From assembly GCA_000091205.1 (NCBI GenBank), contig AP006490.2: DNA of 64,000 nt; one strand, written 5' to 3'. Source of the stretch: Cyanidioschyzon merolae. Its lineage: Eukaryota. This document shows positions 3,006-55,788 of the stretch, one piece after another. Position 1 is the first letter of the stretch. Each line of letters begins with the position of its first letter. The notes under the pieces are model-generated. The model was given only the letters and a program-made list of their open reading frames with translations, was not told the origin of the DNA and made no database searches. The position numbers and the translations under genes are program-made.

Positions 3006-4559
3006 TCAGAGCGAATTCTGGTTTTCGTGCTTTCCCTCGACAACGGATATCTCTGTGGATGCCTCTGGAGCTAGACTTGCCTCCGAACTGGGTTCTGCCT
3101 CGGCTGCACTGGACCAGAGCCAAGCAGCTGGTTCCGGAATCATCGGCTGTGCGGTAGGTAAAGCTGGTGGCTGATCATCCCTCCCAACCAGATAGATATT
3201 CATGTTCTGGTTGGCTATGGGTTCGTATATCCTCATAAACTGCATCTCCAGCTGGGTGAGCGCGGTTAAAACGCTTTCGCGCTGGGTTCGCTCCCGACCG
3301 CACCAGGTTTTGTGCACGTGCCTGCGAGCCGCCTCCAGGGTTTCGAACCCGTCATGACAGGCGGCGAGTGCTGCCCCGCGGTTTTGCTTCTCGGTCTCAT
3401 CCTGGGACCATAGGCTCATTCCCTGAAGCATACGTGCCCACGCAGTGCTCGTCCGCAGCCGAAACCGCAGATACTCTACCCACCCCTGTAAACGCTCTCC
3501 ATCGACCTCTGTCCGCGAATGCGCATCGGTGGGTGTGATGTCCTCCAGCACAGTGAGCGCTTCCTCGAAGCGCGCCATTGCCGCGTGCGCAGACGCTGCC
3601 CAGCCGCTTAGATCTTCATGTTGCGGTAGTGTGCCGGCAGTTGCTTTGGGAAGCTTTGCTCGAAATCCCCGCACAACTGCCACCATCTCCGCGTGCCCCA
3701 GACACTGGAGCAGCAGCGCGTCAATCACGGCATCCTGGAGATCAACTGGAAGCGCGGATACTGCCTCTTCATTGGGGTAATGTTCGTTCCGAATCTCCTT
3801 CAGAGCTTGAAGCTCTTCTGCTGCTTCAACAAGCAACTGTTGAACGCGTTCGCGCCGCGTATCCCACGCTGGCGCTTTGCGGGGTGCGCTCTGCTTCCGA
3901 CTGCCGTTCCGGCGTTTCGAGTCCTGATCCGGGATGCGTTCCGGATCAAAGACGCTGTCCGTGAGCTCCCCTTCTGGATCGCTCGCTACCCGCTTGGCTC
4001 GCATCAGCGTCGATAACGCCAGTGCGTACACAACGTTCACCACTTCGAAGCCGCTATCGCCTTTATGAAAGCGATCCCCTGACGCAAGCAACCCCGTCCA
4101 GGCGTACTTGGCATTTTCCTCGGCCGAGGCGTCTTCTTTGGAAAGCGCTTGCAAATATTTCGCAACGCGAGAACGCGTCAGCCTTTTGACGTGAACCCTG
4201 GTCGCCTTCGACGCCCCCGCACTGTCTGCTGCAACGTACCGTTGGCGTAACGAGAGCGCAGTGTCCGCTGCTGTTGCCTCTAGTGCTCGGGTGTACTTGC
4301 GCCCAGGAACATAGACGAAAAGGTCCACTGGAACAATCACCTCGAACTGTCCTGTGTCATGTCTACCGTCTAAAAGTGAATAGCACCCACCCATTCCTGA
4401 GACAGTGAGCGGTGCGTGAGCTTCAGTTGAAGGAGGAATTGTTTTTTTAGAACATTGGTGCGCGTCGCACAGCTTCACGTCGAAGCGAAGCTGCGATCTC
4501 CAGCGGACGCCCGCTGGCTGCGTGCACCGCGTATCGAGCGCCGTTTTTGCGGTGCGCAT
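3006..4559 (-). CDS. BRO1-domain-like protein (PalC/Rim20/ALIX-family N-terminal domain), 517 aa
   Basis: Genuine ATG at 4559 (rc of cat). Weak collinear resemblance to the ALIX Bro1 domain (e.g. ALIX TLSLIMLAQAQEVFFLKATRDK vs IDALLLQCLGHAEMVAVVRGFRAK here; ALIX GEEIARLQHA vs DGFETLEAAR). Family call from memory of the fold only, no search run. Internal MGGCYSLL at residue 56. Confidence 0.45.
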   Translation of the reverse strand: MRTAKTALDTRCTQPAGVRWRSQLRFDVKLCDAHQCSKKTIPPSTEAHAPLTVSGMGGCYSLLDGRHDTGQFEVIVPVDLFVYVPGRKYTRALEATAADTALSLRQRYVAADSAGASKATRVHVKRLTRSRVAKYLQALSKEDASAEENAKYAWTGLLASGDRFHKGDSGFEVVNVVYALALSTLMRAKRVASDPEGELTDSVFDPERIPDQDSKRRNGSRKQSAPRKAPAWDTRRERVQQLLVEAAEELQALKEIRNEHYPNEEAVSALPVDLQDAVIDALLLQCLGHAEMVAVVRGFRAKLPKATAGTLPQHEDLSGWAASAHAAMARFEEALTVLEDITPTDAHSRTEVDGERLQGWVEYLRFRLRTSTAWARMLQGMSLWSQDETEKQNRGAALAACHDGFETLEAARRHVHKTWCGRERTQRESVLTALTQLEMQFMRIYEPIANQNMNIYLVGRDDQPPALPTAQPMIPEPAAWLWSSAAEAEPSSEASLAPEASTEISVVEGKHENQNSL

Positions 4560-5304: not shown

Positions 5305-5690
5305 TGCAAATGCACTGAACAGTAGCGCATTGCTCGAATAAGCCCATGATAGGCGTCTTCCATGGATGATGTATATCGTTCGTACGTAATTGCACGAGCG
5401 CAGATACACTGAACAGTAGCGCATTGCTCGAATAAGCCCATGATAGGCGTCTTCCATGGATGATGTATATCGTTCGTACGTAATTGCACGAGCGCAGATA
5501 CACTGAACAGTAGCGCATTGCTCGAATAAGCCCATGATAGGCATCTTCCATGGATGATGTATATCGTTCGTACGTAATTGCACGAGCGCAGATACACTGA
5601 ACAGTAGCGCATTGCTCGAATAAGCCCATGATAGGCATCTTCCATGGATGATGTATATCGTTCGTATGTAATTGCACGAGCGCAGATACA
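5305..5690. repeat. tandem minisatellite, 94-bp unit x ~4.1
   Basis: The 8-mer cactgaac recurs at 5313, 5407, 5501 and 5595, an exact 94-bp period. Overlapping minus-strand ORFs 5142-5853 with reiterated peptides are frame artefacts of the array. Confidence 0.9.
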
Positions 5691-16045: not shown

Positions 16046-17270
16046 ATTGGCAAGAGATCCAAACATGAGCGTATACGCCCACGATAAGCCCTTGCACCCG
16101 TCGCATACGATCCTCCTGCCAGTTGATCCAGAGGTAAATCCGCATCTTCGAAGGATCAAGGCACGAGAGCGTATACACCCACGATAAGCCCTTGCAACCG
16201 TCGCATACGATCCTCCTGCCAGTTGATCCAGAGGTAAATCCGCATCTTCGAAGGATCAAGGCACGAGAGCGTATACGCCCACGATAAGCCATTGCACCCG
16301 TCGCATACGATCCTCCTGCCAGTTGATCCAGAGGTAAATCCGCATCTTCGAAGGATCAAGGCACGAGAGCGTATACGCCCACGATAAGCCATTGCAACCG
16401 TCGCATACGATGCTCCTACCAGTTGATCCAGAGGTAAATCCGCATCTTCGAAGGATCAAGGCACGAGAGCGTATACGCCCACGATAAGCCATTGCACCCG
16501 TCGCATACGATCCTCCTGCCAGTTGATCCAGAGGTAAATCCGCATCTTCGAAGGATCAAGGCACGAGAGCGTATACGCCCACGATAAGCCATTGCAACCG
16601 TCGCATACGATGCTCCTACCAGTTGATCCAGAGGTAAATCCGCATCTTCGAAGGATCAAGGCACGAGAGCGTATACGCCCACGATAAGCCATTGCACCCG
16701 TCGCATACGATGCTCCTACCAGTTGATCCAGAGGTAAATCCGCATCTTCGAAGGATCAAGGCACGAGAGCGTATACGCCCACGATAAGCCATTGCACCCG
16801 TCGCATACGATGCTCCTACCAGTTGATCCAGAGGTAAATCCGCATCTTCGAAGGATCAAGGCACGAGAGCGTATACGCCCACGATAAGCCATTGCAACCG
16901 TCGCATACGATGCTCCTGCCAGTTGATCCAGAGGTAAATCCGCATCTTCGAAGGATCAAGGCACGAGAGCGTATACGCCCACGATAAGCCATTGCACCCG
17001 TCGCATACGATGCTCCTACCAGTTGATCCAGAGGTAAATCCGCATCTTCGAAGGATCAAGGCACGAGAGCGTATACGCCCACGATAAGCCATTGCAACCG
17101 TCGCATACGATGCTCCTGCCAGTTGATCCAGAGGTAAATCCGCATCTTCGAAGGATCAAGGCACGAGAGCGTATACGCCCACGATAAGCCATTGCAACCG
17201 TCGCATACGATGCTCCTACCAGTTGATCCAGAGGTAAATCCGCATCTTCGAAGGATCAAGGCACGAGAGC
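16046..17270. repeat. tandem satellite, 100-bp unit x ~12; unit contains the perfect palindrome GCGTATACGC
   Basis: Unit gcgtatacgcccacgataagccattgcacccgtcgcatacgatcctcctgccagttgatccagaggtaaatccgcatcttcgaaggatcaaggcacgagag repeats with exact 100-bp phase. The artefactual minus-strand ORFs start at 100-bp multiples (16156, 16256, 16456, 16856, 17056). Copies differ by a few SNPs (c/t, a/c). The array ends 110 bp upstream of the Rad21 ATG. Confidence 0.95.
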
Positions 17271-17316
17271 GCGAAATCGCGCGCCTCTGCCGTTGATCCA
17301 GCGCGGGATTTCGCGC
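17269..17316. promoter_or_regulatory. inverted pair of E2F-type sites (GCGCGAAA ... TTTCGCGC) forming a GC-rich stem-loop, 65-112 bp upstream of the Rad21 ATG
   Basis: gcgcgaaatcgcgcgc (17269-17284) and gcgcgggatttcgcgcgc (17301-17318) are near-perfect reverse complements (about 15-bp stem, 16-nt loop ctctgccgttgatccag). Each arm carries the E2F consensus TTTSSCGC on one strand. Confidence 0.45.
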
Positions 17317-17380
17317 GCTATCGCCCTCATCCCTCGAGGCATTTTCCGTTGTTCTTGTGCTTGTTCTGTGAACGAGAGAA

Positions 17381-19702
17381 ATGTTTTATGCGACCAGTCT
17401 CATCAAACGGCGCAGTTCATTCGCCAAAGTTTGGATTGCAGCAACACTCGGGACCGAACGTCTTCCTCGGTCCTTTCTGATTCGTGTAAGCATTGCTCGT
17501 ATCTGCAGGGAACTGCTAGAGACGATCCATATCAATGCCCTGTCATTGCGACTGGAGGCACTGCTTCTGGTCGGCATTGCGAGAATCTATGAGCGACAGG
17601 TACTACTGTTTTGCACGCTTGCGGAAGATTGGTTTAGCCGGGAGCGGTTACAAGCACGCGTCTGTATACTGTCCACCGATGGACGACAGCACGACGATTC
17701 CGCAGCGGCAGGCGCAGAGGTGGCATCAGATGCTAGTGTCGCTACAGACGCGAATGCCGCGGACGCTGACCAGTTTGCTGCGAGGAATTCGCGAGATACG
17801 CGCTACCTGTTGCACCGGATCGGGGCCAGCAGGCGGAAGCAGCTCTGCGCGCGCTACGGCAGCATCACCTGGGGCCCAGACTCGCGATCCTTGGAGCCGG
17901 TGCCCCAGCAGACGAATGCACCACATACATCTGGTGAATATTTCGCCCATGTTGATGTGCTCTGGCATCTGTACGACTCGGAGCTTTACGGGCGTCACGA
18001 AAGAGCCGCGTTGCTCGCTGCACCCCAGCATGGGTTGGTGGCGACGGCGGCGGCAGCCATGCAACCCTATGAGCTTGCGGCATCTGTTCCCGAAGCCGCC
18101 ACCGAGCCGAGCGGGAGCGTCGAGCGCGCCTGGCCGCTCTCGCCGACACCGTTTCGTGTCAACGACCAGGACACCATTACATTGAGACAGCCGCGAATTG
18201 AGTTTTCGTCTGGCAGTCTGTCGATCATTCCCCAGCTCGATGAACGGGAGAGATTCCCCGAGGACCGCGATGCAAGCGGTGACTCGAGCATCGCTCCCCG
18301 GCGACTATTAGAGGCCCTCGATGCTGCTGCTCTGGCGCTGATCCCAGATGACACAAGTGCACAGACGAATATGGCTCCATTACCCAATCATGGCAATGAA
18401 ACGACTACTGGGCATGCTCAAGACGCACCGCAACGTCTTGTCCCGAATTCGGTGCCAACGAAGGAGCAGCAGGAACGTTTGGGATCGCAACGATCGCTTC
18501 GTCGTCGCAATGCATTGTCGAGCGTAGCCTGTTTGCAGCTTGATGAGCTGGATGCGCTCGCGCTACCACCGAGGCGATTGCAAATGAATATGCATCACAC
18601 ACGGGATCTCGTGCTCGCTTGCCAGCAATCAAATCGCAGCACCAACAGTGCCACTGCAGCGCAAGGTCCCTATCACCAGTCACCGGGCACGGAGGCAGGC
18701 AGTGCTCCAACGCAGTTGCAGCGTCTCACACAGTCTCTCGATGAGAACACATACGTAAGCAACTTGCTCGCGACAAAAGACTTCGTTTATCGATGTCTTA
18801 GCCAAGGTATCTTTGCGGTTGCGGTGGCACGCACCAGCCGCCTCAGAGCTATTTTCGAGGCAGTGCTCCGCCCACATTTCGAAGCACAGCCTCAAAGGCC
18901 AGCTACGGATCCAAAGGACATGCATGGCATGCCACATGCTGGGGAAGAGCGTCATCCGCCACCAGAATCTGAGGACAACGCTCAGCTGCGAGCATCATTG
19001 CCGCAGTCTGCGTCATTTTCTGGAAGCGCTCCGGAGCGATTACGCGGTTATGCTACGGCTGATGGATTCGAGGTGCCCTCACTGGATACAGACACACCAG
19101 GCGCCTACGCGGTTGCCCTTCGTGCAGCCTCATCCGAGCACTCTGCATCGCTGCCGAGAATGACGGTGCCTGATCTGAGGCTATCGGGTGTTCCTGCTGC
19201 GCGGTCTCCATTGGATAGCGGAGACCAATGCTCCCCAGGTTTAGCGATGTCAAGAATACACACAGAACTTATGCCTGTCATGGAGAATGCAGGGCAAGGC
19301 ACATCCCATGCCTCGATAGTGTCCATCGAGGGCGACCGCAGGCCAACCGTAACGCCTCAGTCGTATCGCGAAACACTCATTCGTTGCATCGAGAGGCAGC
19401 GCGCCGGAGACGCCAGCAGTCCAGGTTCATGTCGCTGGGTCAACTTTTCCGCCCTGCTCGGTGCTTTTGTTTCCGCGTTCGACGCCAAAAACGACACACC
19501 AAGCGCACAGAGCACAGAAAATCAAACAAAGCCGTATCCCGCGGCTTGGAGCCGGCCCTGCGCGGCGCTGCTGTTCGCCACCACTTTGAAGCTCGCGACC
19601 ACAGGACAGGTTACCGCCCACCAAACAACGCCGTATGGAAGCATTGCACTGCACTGGAACGGTGACAAGGACCCGGGCACCGCGCCGATTGCGGCGTCCT
19701 AG
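17381..19702 (+). CDS. RAD21: cohesin kleisin subunit Rad21/Scc1 (or meiotic Rec8), 773 aa
   Basis: ATG at 17381. N-terminal MFYATSLIKRRSSFAKVWIAATLG...LRLEALLLVGIARIYERQ matches the Rad21/Rec8 N-terminal domain (MFYxxxxLxKxGPLAxIWLAA...LLGVVRIY). The C-terminus AALLFATTLKLATTGQVTAHQTTPYGSIAL matches the Rad21 C-terminal winged-helix domain. Confidence 0.85.
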   Translation: MFYATSLIKRRSSFAKVWIAATLGTERLPRSFLIRVSIARICRELLETIHINALSLRLEALLLVGIARIYERQVLLFCTLAEDWFSRERLQARVCILSTDGRQHDDSAAAGAEVASDASVATDANAADADQFAARNSRDTRYLLHRIGASRRKQLCARYGSITWGPDSRSLEPVPQQTNAPHTSGEYFAHVDVLWHLYDSELYGRHERAALLAAPQHGLVATAAAAMQPYELAASVPEAATEPSGSVERAWPLSPTPFRVNDQDTITLRQPRIEFSSGSLSIIPQLDERERFPEDRDASGDSSIAPRRLLEALDAAALALIPDDTSAQTNMAPLPNHGNETTTGHAQDAPQRLVPNSVPTKEQQERLGSQRSLRRRNALSSVACLQLDELDALALPPRRLQMNMHHTRDLVLACQQSNRSTNSATAAQGPYHQSPGTEAGSAPTQLQRLTQSLDENTYVSNLLATKDFVYRCLSQGIFAVAVARTSRLRAIFEAVLRPHFEAQPQRPATDPKDMHGMPHAGEERHPPPESEDNAQLRASLPQSASFSGSAPERLRGYATADGFEVPSLDTDTPGAYAVALRAASSEHSASLPRMTVPDLRLSGVPAARSPLDSGDQCSPGLAMSRIHTELMPVMENAGQGTSHASIVSIEGDRRPTVTPQSYRETLIRCIERQRAGDASSPGSCRWVNFSALLGAFVSAFDAKNDTPSAQSTENQTKPYPAAWSRPCAALLFATTLKLATTGQVTAHQTTPYGSIALHWNGDKDPGTAPIAAS

Positions 19703-26004: not shown

Positions 26005-26772
26005 TGCGTGTTGATCTTCGATTTTCGTCTGATGGAACGTTTATGGATGGTGCAGGGATACCAGCTTCCTTGATGGATATTCGTGCTTGGCGTTGCGTCT
26101 AATCGTTCGTCTTCACTCTGCCTTCAAGTTCCATGATTGATACATATCCACTGGGTGTACAGAGAGACAGTCGATTTTCGTCTGATGGAACGTTTATAGA
26201 TGGTGCAGGGATACCAGCTTCCTTGACGGATATTCGTGCTTGGCGTGGCGTCTAATCGTTCGTCTTCACTCTACCTTCAAGTTGCATGATTGATACATAT
26301 CCACTCGGTGTACAGAGAGACAGTCGATTTTCGTCGGATGGAACGTTTATAGATGGTGCAGGGATACCAGCTTCCTTGATGGATATTCGTGCTTGGCGTG
26401 GCGTCTAATCGTTCGTCTTCACTCTACCTTCAAGTTCCATGATTGATACATTTCCACTGGGTGTACAGAGAGACAGTCGATTTTCGTCTGATGGAACGTT
26501 TATGGATGGTGCAGGGATACCAGCTTCCTTGATGGATATTCGTGCTTGGCGTGGCGTCTAATCGTTCGTCTTCACTCTACCTTCAAGTTCCATGATTGAT
26601 ACATATCCACTGGGTGTACAGAGAGACAGTCGATTTTCGTCTGATGGAACGTTTATGGATGGTGCAGGGATACCAGCTTCCTTGACGGATATTCGTGCTT
26701 GGTGTGGCGTCTAATCGTTCGTCTTCACTCTACCTTCAAGTTCCATGATTGATACATTTCCACTGGGTGTAT
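26005..26772. repeat. tandem minisatellite, 153-bp unit x 5, in the 5' region of the squalene epoxidase gene
   Basis: gattttcg recurs at 26020, 26173, 26326, 26479 and 26632, an exact 153-bp period. The array begins about 175 bp upstream of the ERG1-like ATG (25832, minus strand). The overlapping plus ORF 25687-26073 is an artefact. Confidence 0.9.
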
Positions 26773-45275: not shown

Positions 45276-45410
<135 letters not shown>

Positions 45411-45655
45411 GGGGTTTTGTCGTGCGCTTCTACTGCTGTAGGAGTCGGAGCGAGTGCTCCGGATACGACGAACCCGCACCCGCTTTTCCGGGCGGTTTCT
45501 CGTTGCGTGTACCTTTGTTGCGCTTCAAAAGCCGTCCTAATGGTGTAGGCACTAGCGTCTCGTGCTGGTGGCTAGTTGAGGTCAATGCAGGCAAGCAGTC
45601 TGCAGGACGGAATCAGGCATAGAGTCCTGAACGATACAGGACTTTACAGTACTGT

Positions 45656-48466
45656 TTAGATGCGAAAGATCAAGTTTGAGCGGTACATGATAAGGCCCAT
45701 TGCTTCCAGTGCCTGGAGGGCGCGCTCCACCTGTTCTCTTTCGATGGTTGGATCTGCGAGCTGTTCAACGAGCTGATCGAATGAGGTGGACTCGCTCCGC
45801 TCCGCTGATGTAATGGCTTCAATAGCTTGCTGGACGCGCTCGAGCAGAGCGTCATCGACGAGCGGTACGGTCATAGCGTCCGCCTGTTGGTTGGGCGGGG
45901 TCACTCGCTCCCCGGTCACGCGCAGGGCAGCTAAGTTTTCGGTAACTGGTCTTGTCTCCGGGCCGCTGGATATGCCGCCTGCCTGCGGCGACAAAGTCGA
46001 ATGTGCTGCAATGTCACTCGCCTGGGGCGTTACACTGCTGCCGAGCGCTGCACCTGATCGAACGCGTCGGCGAATGCGCTGCTGCGACGCTCTCGACGAA
46101 CGTGACGCTGCTTGCCGCCGTCCAGGGCTGTAGGATGGCTCGTCGCTCGCGGATGCATTGGATGCGGCCTCGGACTCATCGCCATCATCACCGTCGCCAT
46201 TATTGTCATCGTCGTCATCGAAAGCGAACGGATCCAAACGGCGACTCGCTGGCGCGGTTCGACGTCGCGTACCAGAGCGTTGCGGCAATGGCGCTGCAGC
46301 CGATGCCGACACCGGACTCGTATTCGCGTCAGGTGAGCGCACGGGGGCAGCTCTGGCGACGTCGTGTTCGCGGTCGATTTGAGTCTCATGGTAAAGGGCG
46401 AAATTCAGCAGATCAAAAGCAGCACGCGCATCAGTGATGTCCACTGTCAGGCTGAGACGCAACTTGGCGTGCGCAGTTGCGAGGCGAATCATTGTCTCCA
46501 GCTGCCGAGCGGTAATGGGTAGCGTGCGAGCGTCATCTTTGGCTCGCAAGTCACGGTATCGCGACGCAATGTACGCCGCTGCCTCTTCAGTAAGCTGCGG
46601 ACTCAGCTCACGTGCGTAGTGGATGTATTTCTGTAAGAACGGCACGGAGAGGATGCGATGCGCGGCAGCACCCTGGATAGCTTCGTTGGCCTGGTGCGAT
46701 ACGAACAATGGTGCCGTCATGGGATCATCGCTTGCCCTAGCAGCACCAGCGGCAGCAGCAGCATCCGATTCGAAGCCCTGATCGTCTGTTGACTCCACGG
46801 TGGTCGCTTCCGCTGGGGGCGCGTTATTTTCAGGCGTCGCTCGCTCGTCGAGTGGCGTGTCCACGTCTGCGCCGGCGTATCCCGCCAGTTCCGCGCGACC
46901 TGCCCTGTCGGGGTTCCGATACTGATGGACGCGCAGCACATGCCTTGCAATGAGCTCGTCTCTTTCGCGGGAGATAGTGTCAAGAACGATGAACACCAAA
47001 TCGAAACGCGAGAGCAACGAATCGGGCAGGGCAATGTTTTCTGCGGGTTTGCGGCGTCGATCATAGGATCCGTAGATCGGATTCGCCGCGGCAAGTACGG
47101 AACAGCGAGCATTCAAAGTAGTATGGATGCCGGCCTTGGCGATCGTTACCGTCTGCTGCTCCATAACTTCATGGATTGCAACTCGGTCCGCATCGCTCAT
47201 CTTGTCGAACTCGTCGATGCAGACGACACCCCGATCAGCGAGTACCATTGCGCCGGCCTCGAGATGGCGCTCCCCCGTGTCTGGGTCTGTGGTGACGGCA
47301 GCGGTGAGACCGACCCCCGAGGAGCCCCGGCCGGTAGTGGATATGGCGGACGGGGCCACGTGAAGTACGAAGCGCAGCATTTGTGACTTGGCTGTGGACG
47401 GGTCTCCCACGAGCAGGATATTGATGTCGCCACGGAGGTGGGTGCCATTGCTGAGGTTCTTTTCAGCGCCCCCTACGAGCTGCAGTAGTACCGCTTTCTT
47501 AATGAAATAGTGGCCACAAATGGATGGAGCAATCGATGCAGTCAGCAACTCGATACCACCCGGCGTGGAGGCTACCTCACGAATGTTCGCAAGGTCGCGT
47601 TCAGAAAACTTGAGGCGATGCTGTGTGTCGCTCAACGGAATACAATGATTGGCCACGATCTTGGTCGCAAAGTACGTCGTCGTCTTGCCTCCCAGAGCGC
47701 GATATGTGCCGATAATACGGACGCGCATGCCGGGTTTGCAAACATCGACCAAATCTGCTTCAAAAACAATGTCAACGGTGCGCGGCAACTGGCCCGGTGG
47801 TGTACGTTCGGGCATCTCTTGCAGGGTCGCCGTCTGAAAGTCGCGGTATGCCGATAACCCGAATTCCGTTTCCATGGGGTTGCCGTCTTCGTCACGGGTG
47901 GGATAGATGGCTGCCCCGAGCCCTCGGTTCTGGGCGACATCCAGCGAGATACCATCGCGGTAGACGCGGTGAACTATTTCGTTCTTCGCGGGGATGAAGT
48001 GCACAGACTCTACGACTTTGGGTCGAACAGCAGACACGCGAGTAATTATACCGTCAACGCATACCATCGAGTTCAGCATCGAGGCACGCAGTGAGCGCGG
48101 CGTCGCGTGCAGCGCCCCGAAAGCACCCTCGAACCCAACATGGAGGCGCTGACGTTCCCGCCCAGCAGCACCAGCAGCCGCGAGTGCTGTATTCCACTGC
48201 GCGATATAGTCTGTAAGGACTTCCTCAAATATTGGTAGAAATCGTAGCGGATTTTCAAACAGAAGCTTTGCTATTGTGGGTTCCTCGCGACGTAGGAGGT
48301 CCAGTGAGACGATAAGGCGTCGCTGACGTCCCCGTCGCAGCGCCTCAAGTTGTTGCTGTAGAGGTTCCCACACAGGAGCCTCTGACTCGAACAAGTCCCT
48401 GATCTTGGAACGAAAGTCTTGATCCTGATCAGGGGCAGTAAACAGTGATTGAAAAGCCGTCTCCAT
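45656..48466 (-). CDS. MCM3: DNA replication licensing factor MCM3, about 936 aa
   Basis: Collinear with human MCM3: RLIVSLDLLRREE vs RLIVNVNDLRRKN; VCVDGIITRVSAVRPKVVESVHF vs [23 protein letters not shown]; Walker A GDPSTAKSQ; arginine finger SRFDL; IDEFDKMSDADR; acidic C-terminal tail. Track start 48640 is GTG; the ATG at 48466 (ccATGg, METAFQSLF...) aligns with the MCM3 N-terminus. Upstream in-frame ATGs at 48619, 48601, 48547 cannot be excluded. Confidence 0.85.
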   Translation of the reverse strand: METAFQSLFTAPDQDQDFRSKIRDLFESEAPVWEPLQQQLEALRRGRQRRLIVSLDLLRREEPTIAKLLFENPLRFLPIFEEVLTDYIAQWNTALAAAGAAGRERQRLHVGFEGAFGALHATPRSLRASMLNSMVCVDGIITRVSAVRPKVVESVHFIPAKNEIVHRVYRDGISLDVAQNRGLGAAIYPTRDEDGNPMETEFGLSAYRDFQTATLQEMPERTPPGQLPRTVDIVFEADLVDVCKPGMRVRIIGTYRALGGKTTTYFATKIVANHCIPLSDTQHRLKFSERDLANIREVASTPGGIELLTASIAPSICGHYFIKKAVLLQLVGGAEKNLSNGTHLRGDINILLVGDPSTAKSQMLRFVLHVAPSAISTTGRGSSGVGLTAAVTTDPDTGERHLEAGAMVLADRGVVCIDEFDKMSDADRVAIHEVMEQQTVTIAKAGIHTTLNARCSVLAAANPIYGSYDRRRKPAENIALPDSLLSRFDLVFIVLDTISRERDELIARHVLRVHQYRNPDRAGRAELAGYAGADVDTPLDERATPENNAPPAEATTVESTDDQGFESDAAAAAGAARASDDPMTAPLFVSHQANEAIQGAAAHRILSVPFLQKYIHYARELSPQLTEEAAAYIASRYRDLRAKDDARTLPITARQLETMIRLATAHAKLRLSLTVDITDARAAFDLLNFALYHETQIDREHDVARAAPVRSPDANTSPVSASAAAPLPQRSGTRRRTAPASRRLDPFAFDDDDDNNGDGDDGDESEAASNASASDEPSYSPGRRQAASRSSRASQQRIRRRVRSGAALGSSVTPQASDIAAHSTLSPQAGGISSGPETRPVTENLAALRVTGERVTPPNQQADAMTVPLVDDALLERVQQAIEAITSAERSESTSFDQLVEQLADPTIEREQVERALQALEAMGLIMYRSNLIFRI

Positions 48467-48563
48467 GGTACCTAAACGCGAAGCAGCAGCGAAAAGCGCA
48501 CGCTGTTGTTCAGTGGGTCGATGCGCACGCAGCCTGCGTGCACGCATGGGTGCATCGCAGCGA

Positions 48564-48612
48564 TTTCCCGCGCTCGCGCGTCCACGGGTACCTGCTTGCA
48601 TTCCGCGCGAAA
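48564..48612. promoter_or_regulatory. two E2F-type motifs (TTTCCCGCGC and GCGCGAAA) 98-146 bp upstream of the MCM3 ATG
   Basis: gatttcccgcgc at 48563-48573 and ccgcgcgaaaat at 48603-48614, read directly. Both match TTTSSCGC on one strand or the other. They fall in the Arg-rich non-ATG N-terminal extension of the track ORF, supporting 48466 as the true start. Confidence 0.4.
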
Positions 48613-49069
48613 ATCGCATCGTGCCTTTCGATTTTGCCACAGGTGCGATTTCCCTTCGTTCGACAGAGCGTTGACACTGGATCAGGCCTCTCCGATAGCG
48701 TGCTTGCTATCAGCGATCAAGCGCGAATGGAGCGATGCGCTGCCTGTTCGGGCGCTGACGAGTCATGCGCTTGTCGCGGGCGTCTCCAAGCTTCGTTCAC
48801 GGATCCGTCACAGATGGTGTCTTAGGGCAGCGCGTAGCTGCCTCTAGAACGCTGTCCTCGACGTGTGCACTCCTGGAATGTGCGTATAACCACAACTCGA
48901 GCAGCGCGACGGGCGCATCCTGCTTGGATCTTGTTTAGACCCGCAGGGTCAGGCATCCGCACGGAACGATCGAGCATCCTGCAGATACGTTCCATCGATG
49001 CCATGCGCAGCTGCACACGACTTCTCTTCATTGACAAAACGTTTCCATAGGCCAGCGTTCTCCGATTAT

Positions 49070-52721: not shown

Positions 52722-52973
52722 CTAGTCTGGAGAAAAATTATCTATGGGATCCGCGTACGCATTCCAGCAGGCAGCATCTGGGGTCCCCGCTCCCGAAGCA
52801 GGCACCAGTTCGGTCACAAAACTTGGTATAGCGGCGTCGTGCTTTCTGACGGCTTCGCGCCTCTCAGAAACCTGTCCCGACGATGCCTTCGCCCAAGCGG
52901 TTTCCGCAGCGCGTCCATGCCGAAGAAGCGCTCCAGCGTTCTCAGCGTTCATGTCGCTGGTTGGGGTCCTGAT

Positions 52974-53007
<34 letters not shown>

Positions 53008-54914
53008 CGAGCATCCCAGCTATGGCCCAAGCGATCGCAGCTGCCACTGCCACTGCTGGTGTTGTTGCTGTTGTTCCGGAATAGCTGCTGGTGCCCTGTT
53101 GCCGATGACGTACCATGCTCGAGGCACACAAGCCGTCTTTGACGATTCAGATTGAACCTGTTGCGATTCCTGTCATCACTGGACAAGGATACGCTTTCAT
53201 GAAGATCCGGCAATCGGGCTCCCGCGCCGAGCTCACCATCAGCATCAGAATCAGAGTCGCTGCACAGGCTGGATGCATTCGTCTCAGACCAGCTGGTATC
53301 GGATTCGAAAGAAGCGCTGTCGAAGGTACTCGAGCAAGCGCCTTCTGCGCTCGAGTCTGTCATCTGTGCAAATGCGGCATCAAACAGCTCATCTTCGTTG
53401 TATGTAGGACGCTGTCGCCTTCCTGTCCGGGCGCTACGATGCGGCATCTCTGTCGCCGACGTCGTTATCGCTGCCTCCTGGTCCAAGCACGACTCCCGGG
53501 CAGCCTGTTTCGAGATGCGCACTTCTCGTCGCACCGCAGCCAAATAGCCATGCTCGAGCTCAGCAATGACCGAATCCTGGATGCAACTCCACAACCGGCG
53601 ATTGCGAGAGGACATGGCATCGCCACCGAGCTCCTGGAAGAGACGCTCCATGGCCTGCACTCTGTCTGCATAATCCCGAACAACGACCTCTATCTGAGGA
53701 GGTACGCTGCATTGTGCTGCGGCGCCGCCGTCCAGACGCTCCCCGGTCAGAGAAGCGCTACCATTCGAATGTGCCTCAGAGACACCGCCGCCATAACGGA
53801 GGCGATATATTCGGAAGCAGCCGCACGCCGCAGCCGCTCTCAGGCCTCCGGGAACCCAGTAGCGCCAACCGTAATCGTCTTCACCAAAAGCATCAATCCG
53901 AGTGGCACCATCCCCACGTCGATACACCTGGTCACAGGAAGGCGCTTTCACTGACTTGGAATCGTCCATCGCTGCTTCCCAATCGCTCACAGAGGGTTTT
54001 CTGGTGGAATCGAACCCAGTTCGTAATGCTTTCGCTTTCGAGATGCAGCCATCCGTTCGTGAGCGGCCTGCCGCTGCGGTAGTTGATCGACGAGTGTGAA
54101 ACGGCGCTTGTCGCTGCTCCTGTTGTTTTCGGGCTCGTCGATGTCGCCTTGTGGGCTGTCCAAGGCGCTGGCTGCATTCCTGCTCCTGTTTCGCCATTTC
54201 CCAGATCACGCGGCGCAGACTCTCGTTCGTTTCCGAGACAACCTCACATAGCGCTAAGAGAATGACCACACGCATCCGCGGGTGGAGCATTTCATACCGA
54301 CATCGATCGAGGATGGACGCTCCGTCCTGATCATAAAGGCTGCAACCCGGGTCGCTGCCAGCAGCTGGCCCGCTCAGGTCGTAGAGTTCAGGCCGCGTAC
54401 GTAGTTCCGCTGCGAGCAATTCTATCCACCCGTCTTTCCCGTAGGCATGTATTGCGTCGACCTTGCGCACATGCAGGCAGTTGAGCAACCCGGCATGTAC
54501 GCGCGAGAGCAGTAGCTCTTGGCTTGTTCCTTCCTGGTGCGAGGTCGCAGTCGACGACTGAGCAGTTGTGCTTGCGTGAGCGTCATCAGCTGGGGGTCGT
54601 TCGCGCAAGCCGTGAACGATGTCCGCTTCCAAGCGCCCCGGATCGATCTGGGGCACAAGCGCATCTGTGGGCTTTTTCGGTCGTCCTGCTCGAAAGTACG
54701 TCCGGATTTCCTCATTGATGAAGCCTTGAAGAGCAACGAGAAACTGCAGCACGCTCACGAACTCCGGCATACAGCGTACCTGCGCCACAGCCTTTTCCTT
54801 ATCCTCGTGATCGGCGAGAATTCTATTATCCGAGGTGTAGTCATATACGACACCGTTCACACAGTCCACAGAGGAACACGCGACAGCTTCTGGTGCAGCA
54901 CAGTGCCCGTTCAT
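52722..54914 (-). CDS. hypothetical protein, about 730 aa, with a poly-Asp tract
   Basis: Track start 54965 is GTG; first ATG at 54914 (MNGHCAAPEAV...). Conserved-looking helical N-terminal region (VSVLQFLVALQGFINEEIRTYF...LLNCLHVRKVDAIHAY...RVVILLALCEVVSETNESLRRVIW). (ATC)n at 52974-53007 encodes DDDDDDDDDDDD. No confident family. Confidence 0.5.
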
Positions 54915-55449
54915 GAGATCGCACCGGCCGTCTGTGGCTGTGGAGCCGGTACCGCACCACCACACTGCAGTCGGTTCAACGTCCAGCTCTTTCGGAAAGC
55001 TAGGCCCCGCTAAAGCAAGCCTGAAGCGTCACCGGAGGCACTGCGTCCTTGCGCACACCCTCTACCTCTGTTTTCAAGCTGCCTGTGCAGGCACAACTCG
55101 GAACGAGTCTCCGTTCGCGCCAAAGCGTCCTCCTGTAGCCACCTGCAATGATTGTGAGGCGCGCGTGTGTGCCAACCGGAGCGCTGGGCAGAAGCATATG
55201 CGCTCGACGTCACTGGCGCTATCCTCGATGATGCATTGCCTGGTTCAGTAGCCGTCCTAGTCTGATGCTGTCGCAGTCCCAACTGGACCAATTGAGCACC
55301 ATGCAAGGCGGGGAGGCTGGTCCGTTTGCCAGCGTAACTCGGCGCTGGTCGTTGGCACTCGTTTATCTGGACGCCTAGCTGGCAGGCACGGGTAGGGTAC
55401 TCGAGTGCCGAGTATCCATGCGATGCATTTCCACGGGGCAGTGCAACTC

Positions 55450-55788
55450 GCATATATATGTTTGGCAATGCCGAATGACAGAATCTGATTATTGTATACG
55501 AGGTGTGCATGAGCATCGTTTTCATATTTGGCAATGCCGAATGACAGAATCTGATTATTGTTCACGAGGTGTCCATGAGCATCGTTTTCATATTTGGCAA
55601 TGCCGAATGACAGAATCTGATTATTGTTCACCAGGTGTGCATGAGCATCGTTTTCATATTTGGCAATGCCGAATGACAGAATCTGATTATTGTTCACGAG
55701 GTGTGCATGAGCATCGTTTTCATATTTGGCAATGCCGAATGACAGAATCTGATTATTGTTCACCAGTTATCCTTGAGAATCGTTTTCG
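55450..55788. repeat. tandem minisatellite, 66-bp unit x ~5
   Basis: ggcaatgcc recurs at 55464, 55530, 55596, 55662 and 55728, an exact 66-bp period. ORFs 55257-55763 and 55418-55798 with reiterated peptides are artefacts. Confidence 0.9.

Follow-up and report, generated by a model that had tools for sequence, protein, structure and literature searches.

The 64-kb stretch of DNA analysed here, called the window in the following, carries the gene order CMH250C to CMH264C of chromosome 8 of Cyanidioschyzon merolae 10D. One of its genes, CMH252C, codes for an alpha-kleisin that is 100% identical to XP_005536185.1 of strain 10D, annotated as hypothetical protein CYME_CMH252C; this match rules against a kinetoplastid or oomycete source of the DNA, which had also been considered. 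A minisatellite and an inverted repeat with two E2F-type sites are found upstream of this gene, and a second pair of such sites is found at the gene of the replication protein MCM3. The features used in this work are the following.

16067..17271, unstranded, 100-bp minisatellite, 12.1 copies with 98% matches (Tandem Repeats Finder)
17248..17337, unstranded, imperfect extended palindrome, its left arm entering the last satellite unit
17269..17284, minus strand, arm 1, GCGCGAAATCGCGCGC, with E2F-type site A inside
17269-17276, minus strand, site A, TTTCGCGC; extended form GATTTCGCGC at 17269-17278
17285..17300, unstranded, spacer of 16 nt, CTCTGCCGTTGATCCA
17301..17318, plus strand, arm 2, GCGCGGGATTTCGCGCGC, with E2F-type site B inside
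17309-17316, plus strand, site B, TTTCGCGC; extended form GATTTCGCGC at 17307-17316
17381..19702, plus strand, CMH252C, 773-aa alpha-kleisin with Rad21_Rec8_N and Rad21_Rec8 domains
45656..48466, minus strand, CMH264C, MCM3, with Pfam domains MCM, MCM_OB, MCM_lid and MCM_N
48562..48614, minus strand, inverted E2F pair of the MCM3 promoter, reading GATTTTCGCGCG...GCGCGGGAAATC on the gene strand
48605-48612 (minus strand) and 48564-48571 (plus strand), cores of the MCM3 pair, 41 bp apart

The initial annotation of this DNA described two near-perfect reverse-complementary arms separated by 16 nt, each with a match to the E2F consensus TTTSSCGC. Both statements hold: the arms of the kleisin-promoter element are reverse-complementary across the spacer with one mismatch (15 of 16 positions), and the TTTCGCGC found in each of them, in opposite orientation, matches the consensus. 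With the kleisin ATG at 17381 the element covers positions -112 to -63, a proximal promoter position; the distance to the ATG had been given as 65-112 bp, of which the far end is correct and the near end is 63. When extended, the arms become 37 nt long (17248-17284 and 17301-17337) with a complementarity of 78% in the repeat search.

No other inverted repeat in the window has 16-nt arms with at most one mismatch and a loop of 3-50 nt, and using the same definition a comparable repeat was found in none of 60 Markov-simulated windows. Folded as single-stranded DNA the element reaches -23.3 kcal/mol (z = -3.35), and 0 of 200 shuffled sequences folded as well. Given its uniqueness in the window, the simulated windows and this fold, the observation of an inverted E2F-type repeat upstream of the kleisin gene is confirmed. 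The window was also scanned for tRNA genes and Rfam families, and neither was found.

TTTSSCGC was found 15 times in the window against an expectation of 13.8, and is therefore not enriched window-wide; the chance expectation of about 8 per 64 kb used in the initial annotation was too low. Pairs behave differently from single sites. Two copies within 60 bp of each other were found at two places only, the kleisin gene and MCM3, and both pairs are inverted, where 0.08 inverted pairs would be expected (P(>=2) = 0.004, 1000 simulations). Three copies of the 10-mer GATTTCSCGC were counted in 64 kb, compared to 0.59 expected, two of them in the kleisin promoter and one in the MCM3 promoter, and the fourth site of these two promoters, at MCM3, departs from it by one additional T. 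A comparison of 18 promoters in the window gave a close inverted pair only at the kleisin gene and MCM3 and none at the other 16, and the same two promoters are the only ones having at least two SGCGCS cores in the region -200 to -50. The enrichment at S-phase genes that had been predicted is therefore seen at window scale for the inverted pairs. The extended motifs were also searched for in the transformation-construct sequences of PMC11376382, where none was found.

The MCM3 pair lies 31 kb from the kleisin pair and precedes its own ATG, at 48466, by 98-146 bp. This start is backed by the N-terminus ME(T/P)AFQSLF common to the orthologues, which makes 48466 the true start rather than the upstream ATG at which the metagenome gene call P0051 (987 aa) begins; that call reads through the E2F sites (window 48467-48640). 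The core spacing is 40 bp at the kleisin gene versus 41 bp at MCM3, and the sites are placed at -112/-72 and -146/-105 relative to the respective ATG. The two pairs differ in orientation, the A/T ends pointing towards each other at the kleisin gene and away from each other at MCM3. There is no satellite at the MCM3 pair. MCM3 belongs to the published list of S-phase genes (PMC2646357) and shows the strongest periodicity in the region: an array value of 168 at 4 h becomes 56,809 at 16 h (PMC6606799), the rise at 12-16 h being more than 300-fold.

MCM3 orthologues were taken from Cyanidiococcus and from a third lineage known from hot-spring metagenomes, here called lineage B (L091 and L092). In the alignment of the three Cyanidiales lineages, the invariant blocks of the MCM3 promoter are TTCGCGC and GCGGGAAAT, separated by 36-40 bp start to start, and this invariance constitutes a phylogenetic footprint of the E2F pair at MCM3. 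A metagenome scan using MCM3 returned only distant MCM3 loci of 40-60% identity and no Cyanidiales relatives. Two further details of this promoter were noted, a third E2F-like half site, GGGAAATCGC, at window 48645-48654 (minus strand), and the pattern AATCG.AA at about 48630-48640, upstream of the conserved pair, which is invariant in the three lineages.

MCM3 was also used as the comparator for the GC-rich hairpin that the initial annotation had seen in the kleisin promoter. A hairpin does fold above chance at the kleisin gene, as given above, but the MCM3 pair shows no excess over shuffled sequence (z = 0.03) and the MCM3 orthologues keep the motifs only, without complementarity of the arms. 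Structure is thus not common to the module and the hairpin is probably incidental. An asymmetric site present in both orientations is automatically complementary to itself, and the kleisin hairpin is probably a side effect of two opposed copies of one site.

The same data bear on the alternative that the element acts without E2F, through another factor recognising CGCG, a Myb-type factor, a cruciform in the DNA, or a hairpin formed by the 5' UTR of the RNA and dampening translation. The DNA fold is in favour of a structural role, as are the fold of RNA 17240-17400 (z = -2.75) and the fact that the arms could fall within the transcript; in a longer RNA context, however, the predicted partners of arm 1 are the spacer and the final part of the last satellite unit instead of arm 2. 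A loop of 16 nt with arms of 16 bp is an unfavourable geometry for cruciform extrusion, which would disfavour a cruciform here. The reverse complement of the spacer carries CAACGG, a Myb/MSA-like core, which taken alone is not significant, and Myb-like cores and TGATCCAG occur at chance frequency. Together with the lack of excess structure at MCM3, this makes an action independent of E2F very improbable. TGATCCAG and TTGATCC had also been considered as a second shared motif and were dropped, their counts outside the satellite being those expected by chance.

In the same-species metagenome contigs L001-L007 the kleisin promoter is identical to the window, so these contigs have no footprinting power and no compensatory changes can be read from them; only the repeat copy number is informative. 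An exhaustive profile search gave a syntenic kleisin orthologue in Cyanidiococcus yangmingshanensis (L088), in which the order pseudouridine synthase, kleisin, inositol monophosphatase is kept. Lineage B also has an orthologue (L089, true ATG at 3452). The identity to Cyanidiococcus is 33% for the kleisin versus 70% for MCM3, which characterises the kleisin as fast-evolving.

Neither TTTSSCGC nor WTTSSCSS is found in the 400-500 bp upstream of the kleisin gene in L088 and L089, where there are only CGCG-rich, core-like pieces. With no canonical site in either sister lineage, the kleisin pair is specific to the C. merolae lineage and seems to have arisen there as a new module; conservation of the paired sites fails at the kleisin promoter, while it holds at the invariant MCM3 control. 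For SGCGCS density in the region -200 to -50, the kleisin promoters of the three lineages rank within the top 0.6%, 2.8% and 1.7% of 150-bp windows of their loci.

The two sister promoters share other elements. ACACGTGTCC, an E-box-like palindrome, is common to L088 (3825-3834) and L089 (3293-3302) at -176 and -159, and GCGCACGGA is common to L088 (3893-3901) and L089 (3345-3353) at -108 and -107. Both were sought in the entire 4.2-kb intergenic region of C. merolae and are missing there. This absence points to promoter turnover. The Cyanidiococcus kleisin promoter also holds a (CACG)n microsatellite (L088 3895-3930), at roughly the position of the E2F pair in C. merolae.

The pair had been placed at the edge of a 12-copy, 100-bp satellite, and this is correct: the array ends at 17271, inside arm 1, overlapping it by 3 bases, so that the satellite abuts site A. 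The array has 12 copies in the window versus 3, 5 and 2 in the same-species contigs that span it (L002, L003 and L004), a difference reflecting either true copy-number variation or collapse of short reads. Several other same-species contigs terminate within the satellite. In the sister lineages (L088 and L089) the satellite is absent. The spacer with one nucleotide of arm 2, CTGCC-GTTGATCCAG, aligns with CTGCCAGTTGATCCAG of the satellite unit, the alignment score being 25, where shuffled sequences gave 13.8 +/- 2.1 with a maximum of 24. Judged from the 37-nt extent of the palindrome arms and the kinship of spacer and satellite unit, the pair was possibly born by a local inverted duplication beside the array. 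Intergenic tandem repeats were also found at 5306-5690 (94 bp x 4.1), 26018-26771 (153 bp x 4.9), 55461-55787 (66 bp x 5.0) and 45276-45411, the last being (TCTG)34; since intergenic minisatellites are this common in the region, adjacency to one of them is not special by itself.

These observations are the basis of the main rival explanation, in which the palindrome is a structural by-product of inverted duplication or slippage tied to the emergence or growth of the minisatellite, has no regulatory role, and resembles E2F sites partly by coincidence. The overlap of arm 1 with the array end, the reach of the palindrome arms into the last repeat unit, and the likeness of the spacer to an internal stretch of the satellite unit all fit such an origin, as does the absence of both element and satellite from the sister lineages. 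A single chance site followed by a local inverted duplication could yield the pair, and the expression of CMH252C, described below, shows no convincing response. Three facts speak against a pure by-product. The extended 10-mer, the spacing and the distance to the ATG recur at MCM3, where the pair is conserved and free of satellite; the 16-nt core is complementary at 15 of 16 positions compared to about 67% in the palindrome flanks; and the pair is limited to two chromosome-cycle genes among 18 promoters. We therefore consider this explanation unlikely, though it is the rival to be taken most seriously.

The initial annotation identified the downstream gene as Rad21. Domains of the Rad21/Rec8 family are indeed present at both ends of the protein (Pfam Rad21_Rec8_N PF04825, E 2.9e-16; Rad21_Rec8 PF04824, E 2.1e-5), but the scores favour the REC8/SYN1 type. 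Compared with a biased reference set, the N-terminal domain reaches 38-44 bits for the SYN1/Rec8-like references and 21-28 bits for the RAD21 references. Human RAD21 in PDB gives 16-20 bits, and PDB contains weak matches to the N-termini of human RAD21 and yeast Scc1. The named matches of the exhaustive profile search are the plant 'sister chromatid cohesion 1 protein 1' (SYN1) and fungal Rec8-like proteins. The kleisin homologues of Cyanidiococcus and Galdieria have similar scores against both types. A homologue search with the full-length kleisin recovered its own cluster alone, and one with the N-terminal 98 aa recovered nothing.

By these scores CMH252C is nearer to REC8/SYN1 than to RAD21, and the assignment is not decisive. 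According to one published inventory, which gives no gene identifiers, C. merolae has both Rad21 and Rec8, if the columns of the flattened table are correctly read. CMH252C may be the meiotic paralogue in an alga without a described sexual cycle. With scores leaning towards REC8/SYN1, the argument that Rad21 is a textbook G1/S target may not apply to this gene, nor is an S-phase induction seen in its expression. The N-terminal domain that leans towards REC8/SYN1 carries the motif VWIAATLG (window 17381-17700; also P0016, P0027, P0036, P0037 and P0050).

The array signals of CMH252C over 0-24 h are 60, 103, 54, 38, 27, 26 and 34 (PMC6606799). They stay in the range 26-103 without an increase at 12-16 h, and both level and shape are like those of background-type probes. 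Wild-type RNA-seq gave about 100 TPM in one study (PMC11376382) and about 2 TPM in another (PMC12770821), which is a 50-fold difference at a gene whose neighbours agree between the two sets. This conflict possibly arises from antisense read-through of CMH254C, a convergent and very highly expressed gene, in an unstranded library. The G1/S periodicity that had been anticipated is not seen in any available data, the array being near background and flat through S/M. The conflicting TPM values, the flat array, the absence of the pair from the sister promoters and the Rec8-leaning score together leave G1/S activation unproven, and the data suggest that the output of CMH252C is low or conditional in vegetative cells. 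No discussion of cohesin expression in C. merolae was found in the literature searched.

With a low or conditional vegetative output, the module may act in repression or only in premeiotic S phase. This leads to a reading in which E2F/DP is bound and RB-E2F keeps a Rec8-type kleisin near silent, or poised, in vegetative haploids, the gene being expressed only in premeiotic S phase or some other special state. The figure near 2 TPM and an array signal close to background over the light/dark cycle would be explained, and the difference in bit scores between the two kleisin types, the SYN1 and Rec8-like matches, the fast evolution of the protein relative to MCM3 and the inventory with both kleisins (if its columns are correctly read) are in agreement with a Rec8-type gene. 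The other wild-type set, at about 100 TPM, speaks against this reading. The type assignment itself is not decisive, with ambiguous homologues in Cyanidiococcus and Galdieria and a biased reference set, and no sexual cycle of C. merolae was found documented in the literature searched. Repression or poising is considered unlikely.

The pathway needed for E2F sites to operate is present in the organism. The RB-E2F-DP pathway of this red alga has been studied, with E2F (CMT067C) acting as an E2F-DP heterodimer and RB being CMT038C; knock-down of E2F lowered 201 genes, among them 67 S-phase genes, and an E2F-FLAG strain exists. These genes, known from published work, lie outside the window. The initial annotation had named a lack of E2F/DP genes as grounds for rejecting its proposal, and since E2F, DP and RB are all present, the proposal does not fail on that account.

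On balance we favour, with some reserve, a true E2F/DP-binding function for the kleisin pair, as a module of the MCM3 type acquired in the C. merolae lineage, the binding being predicted from sequence. The basis is the identity of the motif, an architecture matching the conserved pair at the strongly periodic MCM3, and the presence of the pathway in the organism. The regulatory output at CMH252C could be S-phase activation, repression or poising of a Rec8-type gene, or weak. In the proposed mechanism one E2F-DP heterodimer would bind at each CGCG core of the pair. RB would keep the bound E2F-DP inactive during G1, as in the pathway described for this alga, and phosphorylation of RB by CDK would release transcription on entry into S phase, with a sign and size of effect that are conjectural at this gene. 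Alternatively, the module may repress, or may act only at premeiotic S phase if the gene is of the Rec8 type.

A more far-reaching version of the favoured reading is that a Rec8-type kleisin has recently been rewired to the RB-E2F switch. A two-site module, created when sequence beside the growing 100-bp minisatellite was duplicated in inverted form, would have replaced ACACGTGTCC and GCGCACGGA, and inverted pairs about 36-41 bp apart would be the standard E2F architecture of Cyanidiales. Taken as a whole this scenario is doubtful.

The element is of a well-known type. E2F/DP sites are found in promoters of animal and plant G1/S replication genes such as MCM and PCNA, and the kleisin gene resembles these in having exact matches to the consensus TTTSSCGC at a similar proximal position. 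The C. merolae RB-E2F-DP system itself has E2F-dependent S-phase genes, and MCM3 carries the same module in conserved form. The kleisin sites are candidate sites and are not conserved in the sister lineages. The adenovirus E2 early promoter has paired inverted E2F sites, and the human E2F1 and DHFR promoters have overlapping inverted sites. In the same manner two opposed copies of TTTCGCGC are found near the start of the kleisin gene, but at 40 bp centre to centre (about 4 helical turns) the pair is wider than in those three promoters.

Two further systems concern cohesin genes. Fission yeast rec8+ is under MCB/MBF control at premeiotic S phase, MBF being the fungal functional counterpart of E2F; the likeness, if CMH252C is of the Rec8 type, is that of a Rec8-type kleisin gene with CGCG-core G1/S elements. 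The transcription factor family differs. In mammalian somatic cells the meiotic cohesin genes STAG3 and SMC1beta are silenced in an E2F6-dependent manner. Their promoters have E2F sites and their expression is held down outside meiosis, which fits the lower of the two TPM values and the near-background array of CMH252C. The likeness ends at the factor: in the literature searched one E2F (CMT067C) is described for C. merolae and no E2F6-like repressor, and repression by RB-E2F at this gene is purely conjectural.

In the literature search no E2F cis-motif analysis was found for C. merolae or red algae, nor a report of an E2F element at CMH252C, so that as far as this search shows the pair is unreported. 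If the sites are real E2F targets, the RB-E2F regulon of this minimal model alga would gain a cohesin kleisin, and inverted GATTTCSCGC pairs about 40 bp apart could be used for sorting direct from indirect targets among the 201 knock-down genes. If CMH252C is of the Rec8 type and low in vegetative cells, the finding would bear on the question whether a cryptic meiotic programme persists in C. merolae. Otherwise it is a promoter element of textbook kind.

One further arrangement of E2F-like half sites was noted in the window. Upstream of a 747-aa open reading frame that has no Pfam match (52722-54965, minus strand), about 210 bp 5' of its first ATG, TTTGGCGCGAA consists of two overlapping E2F-like half sites at about 55117-55127.
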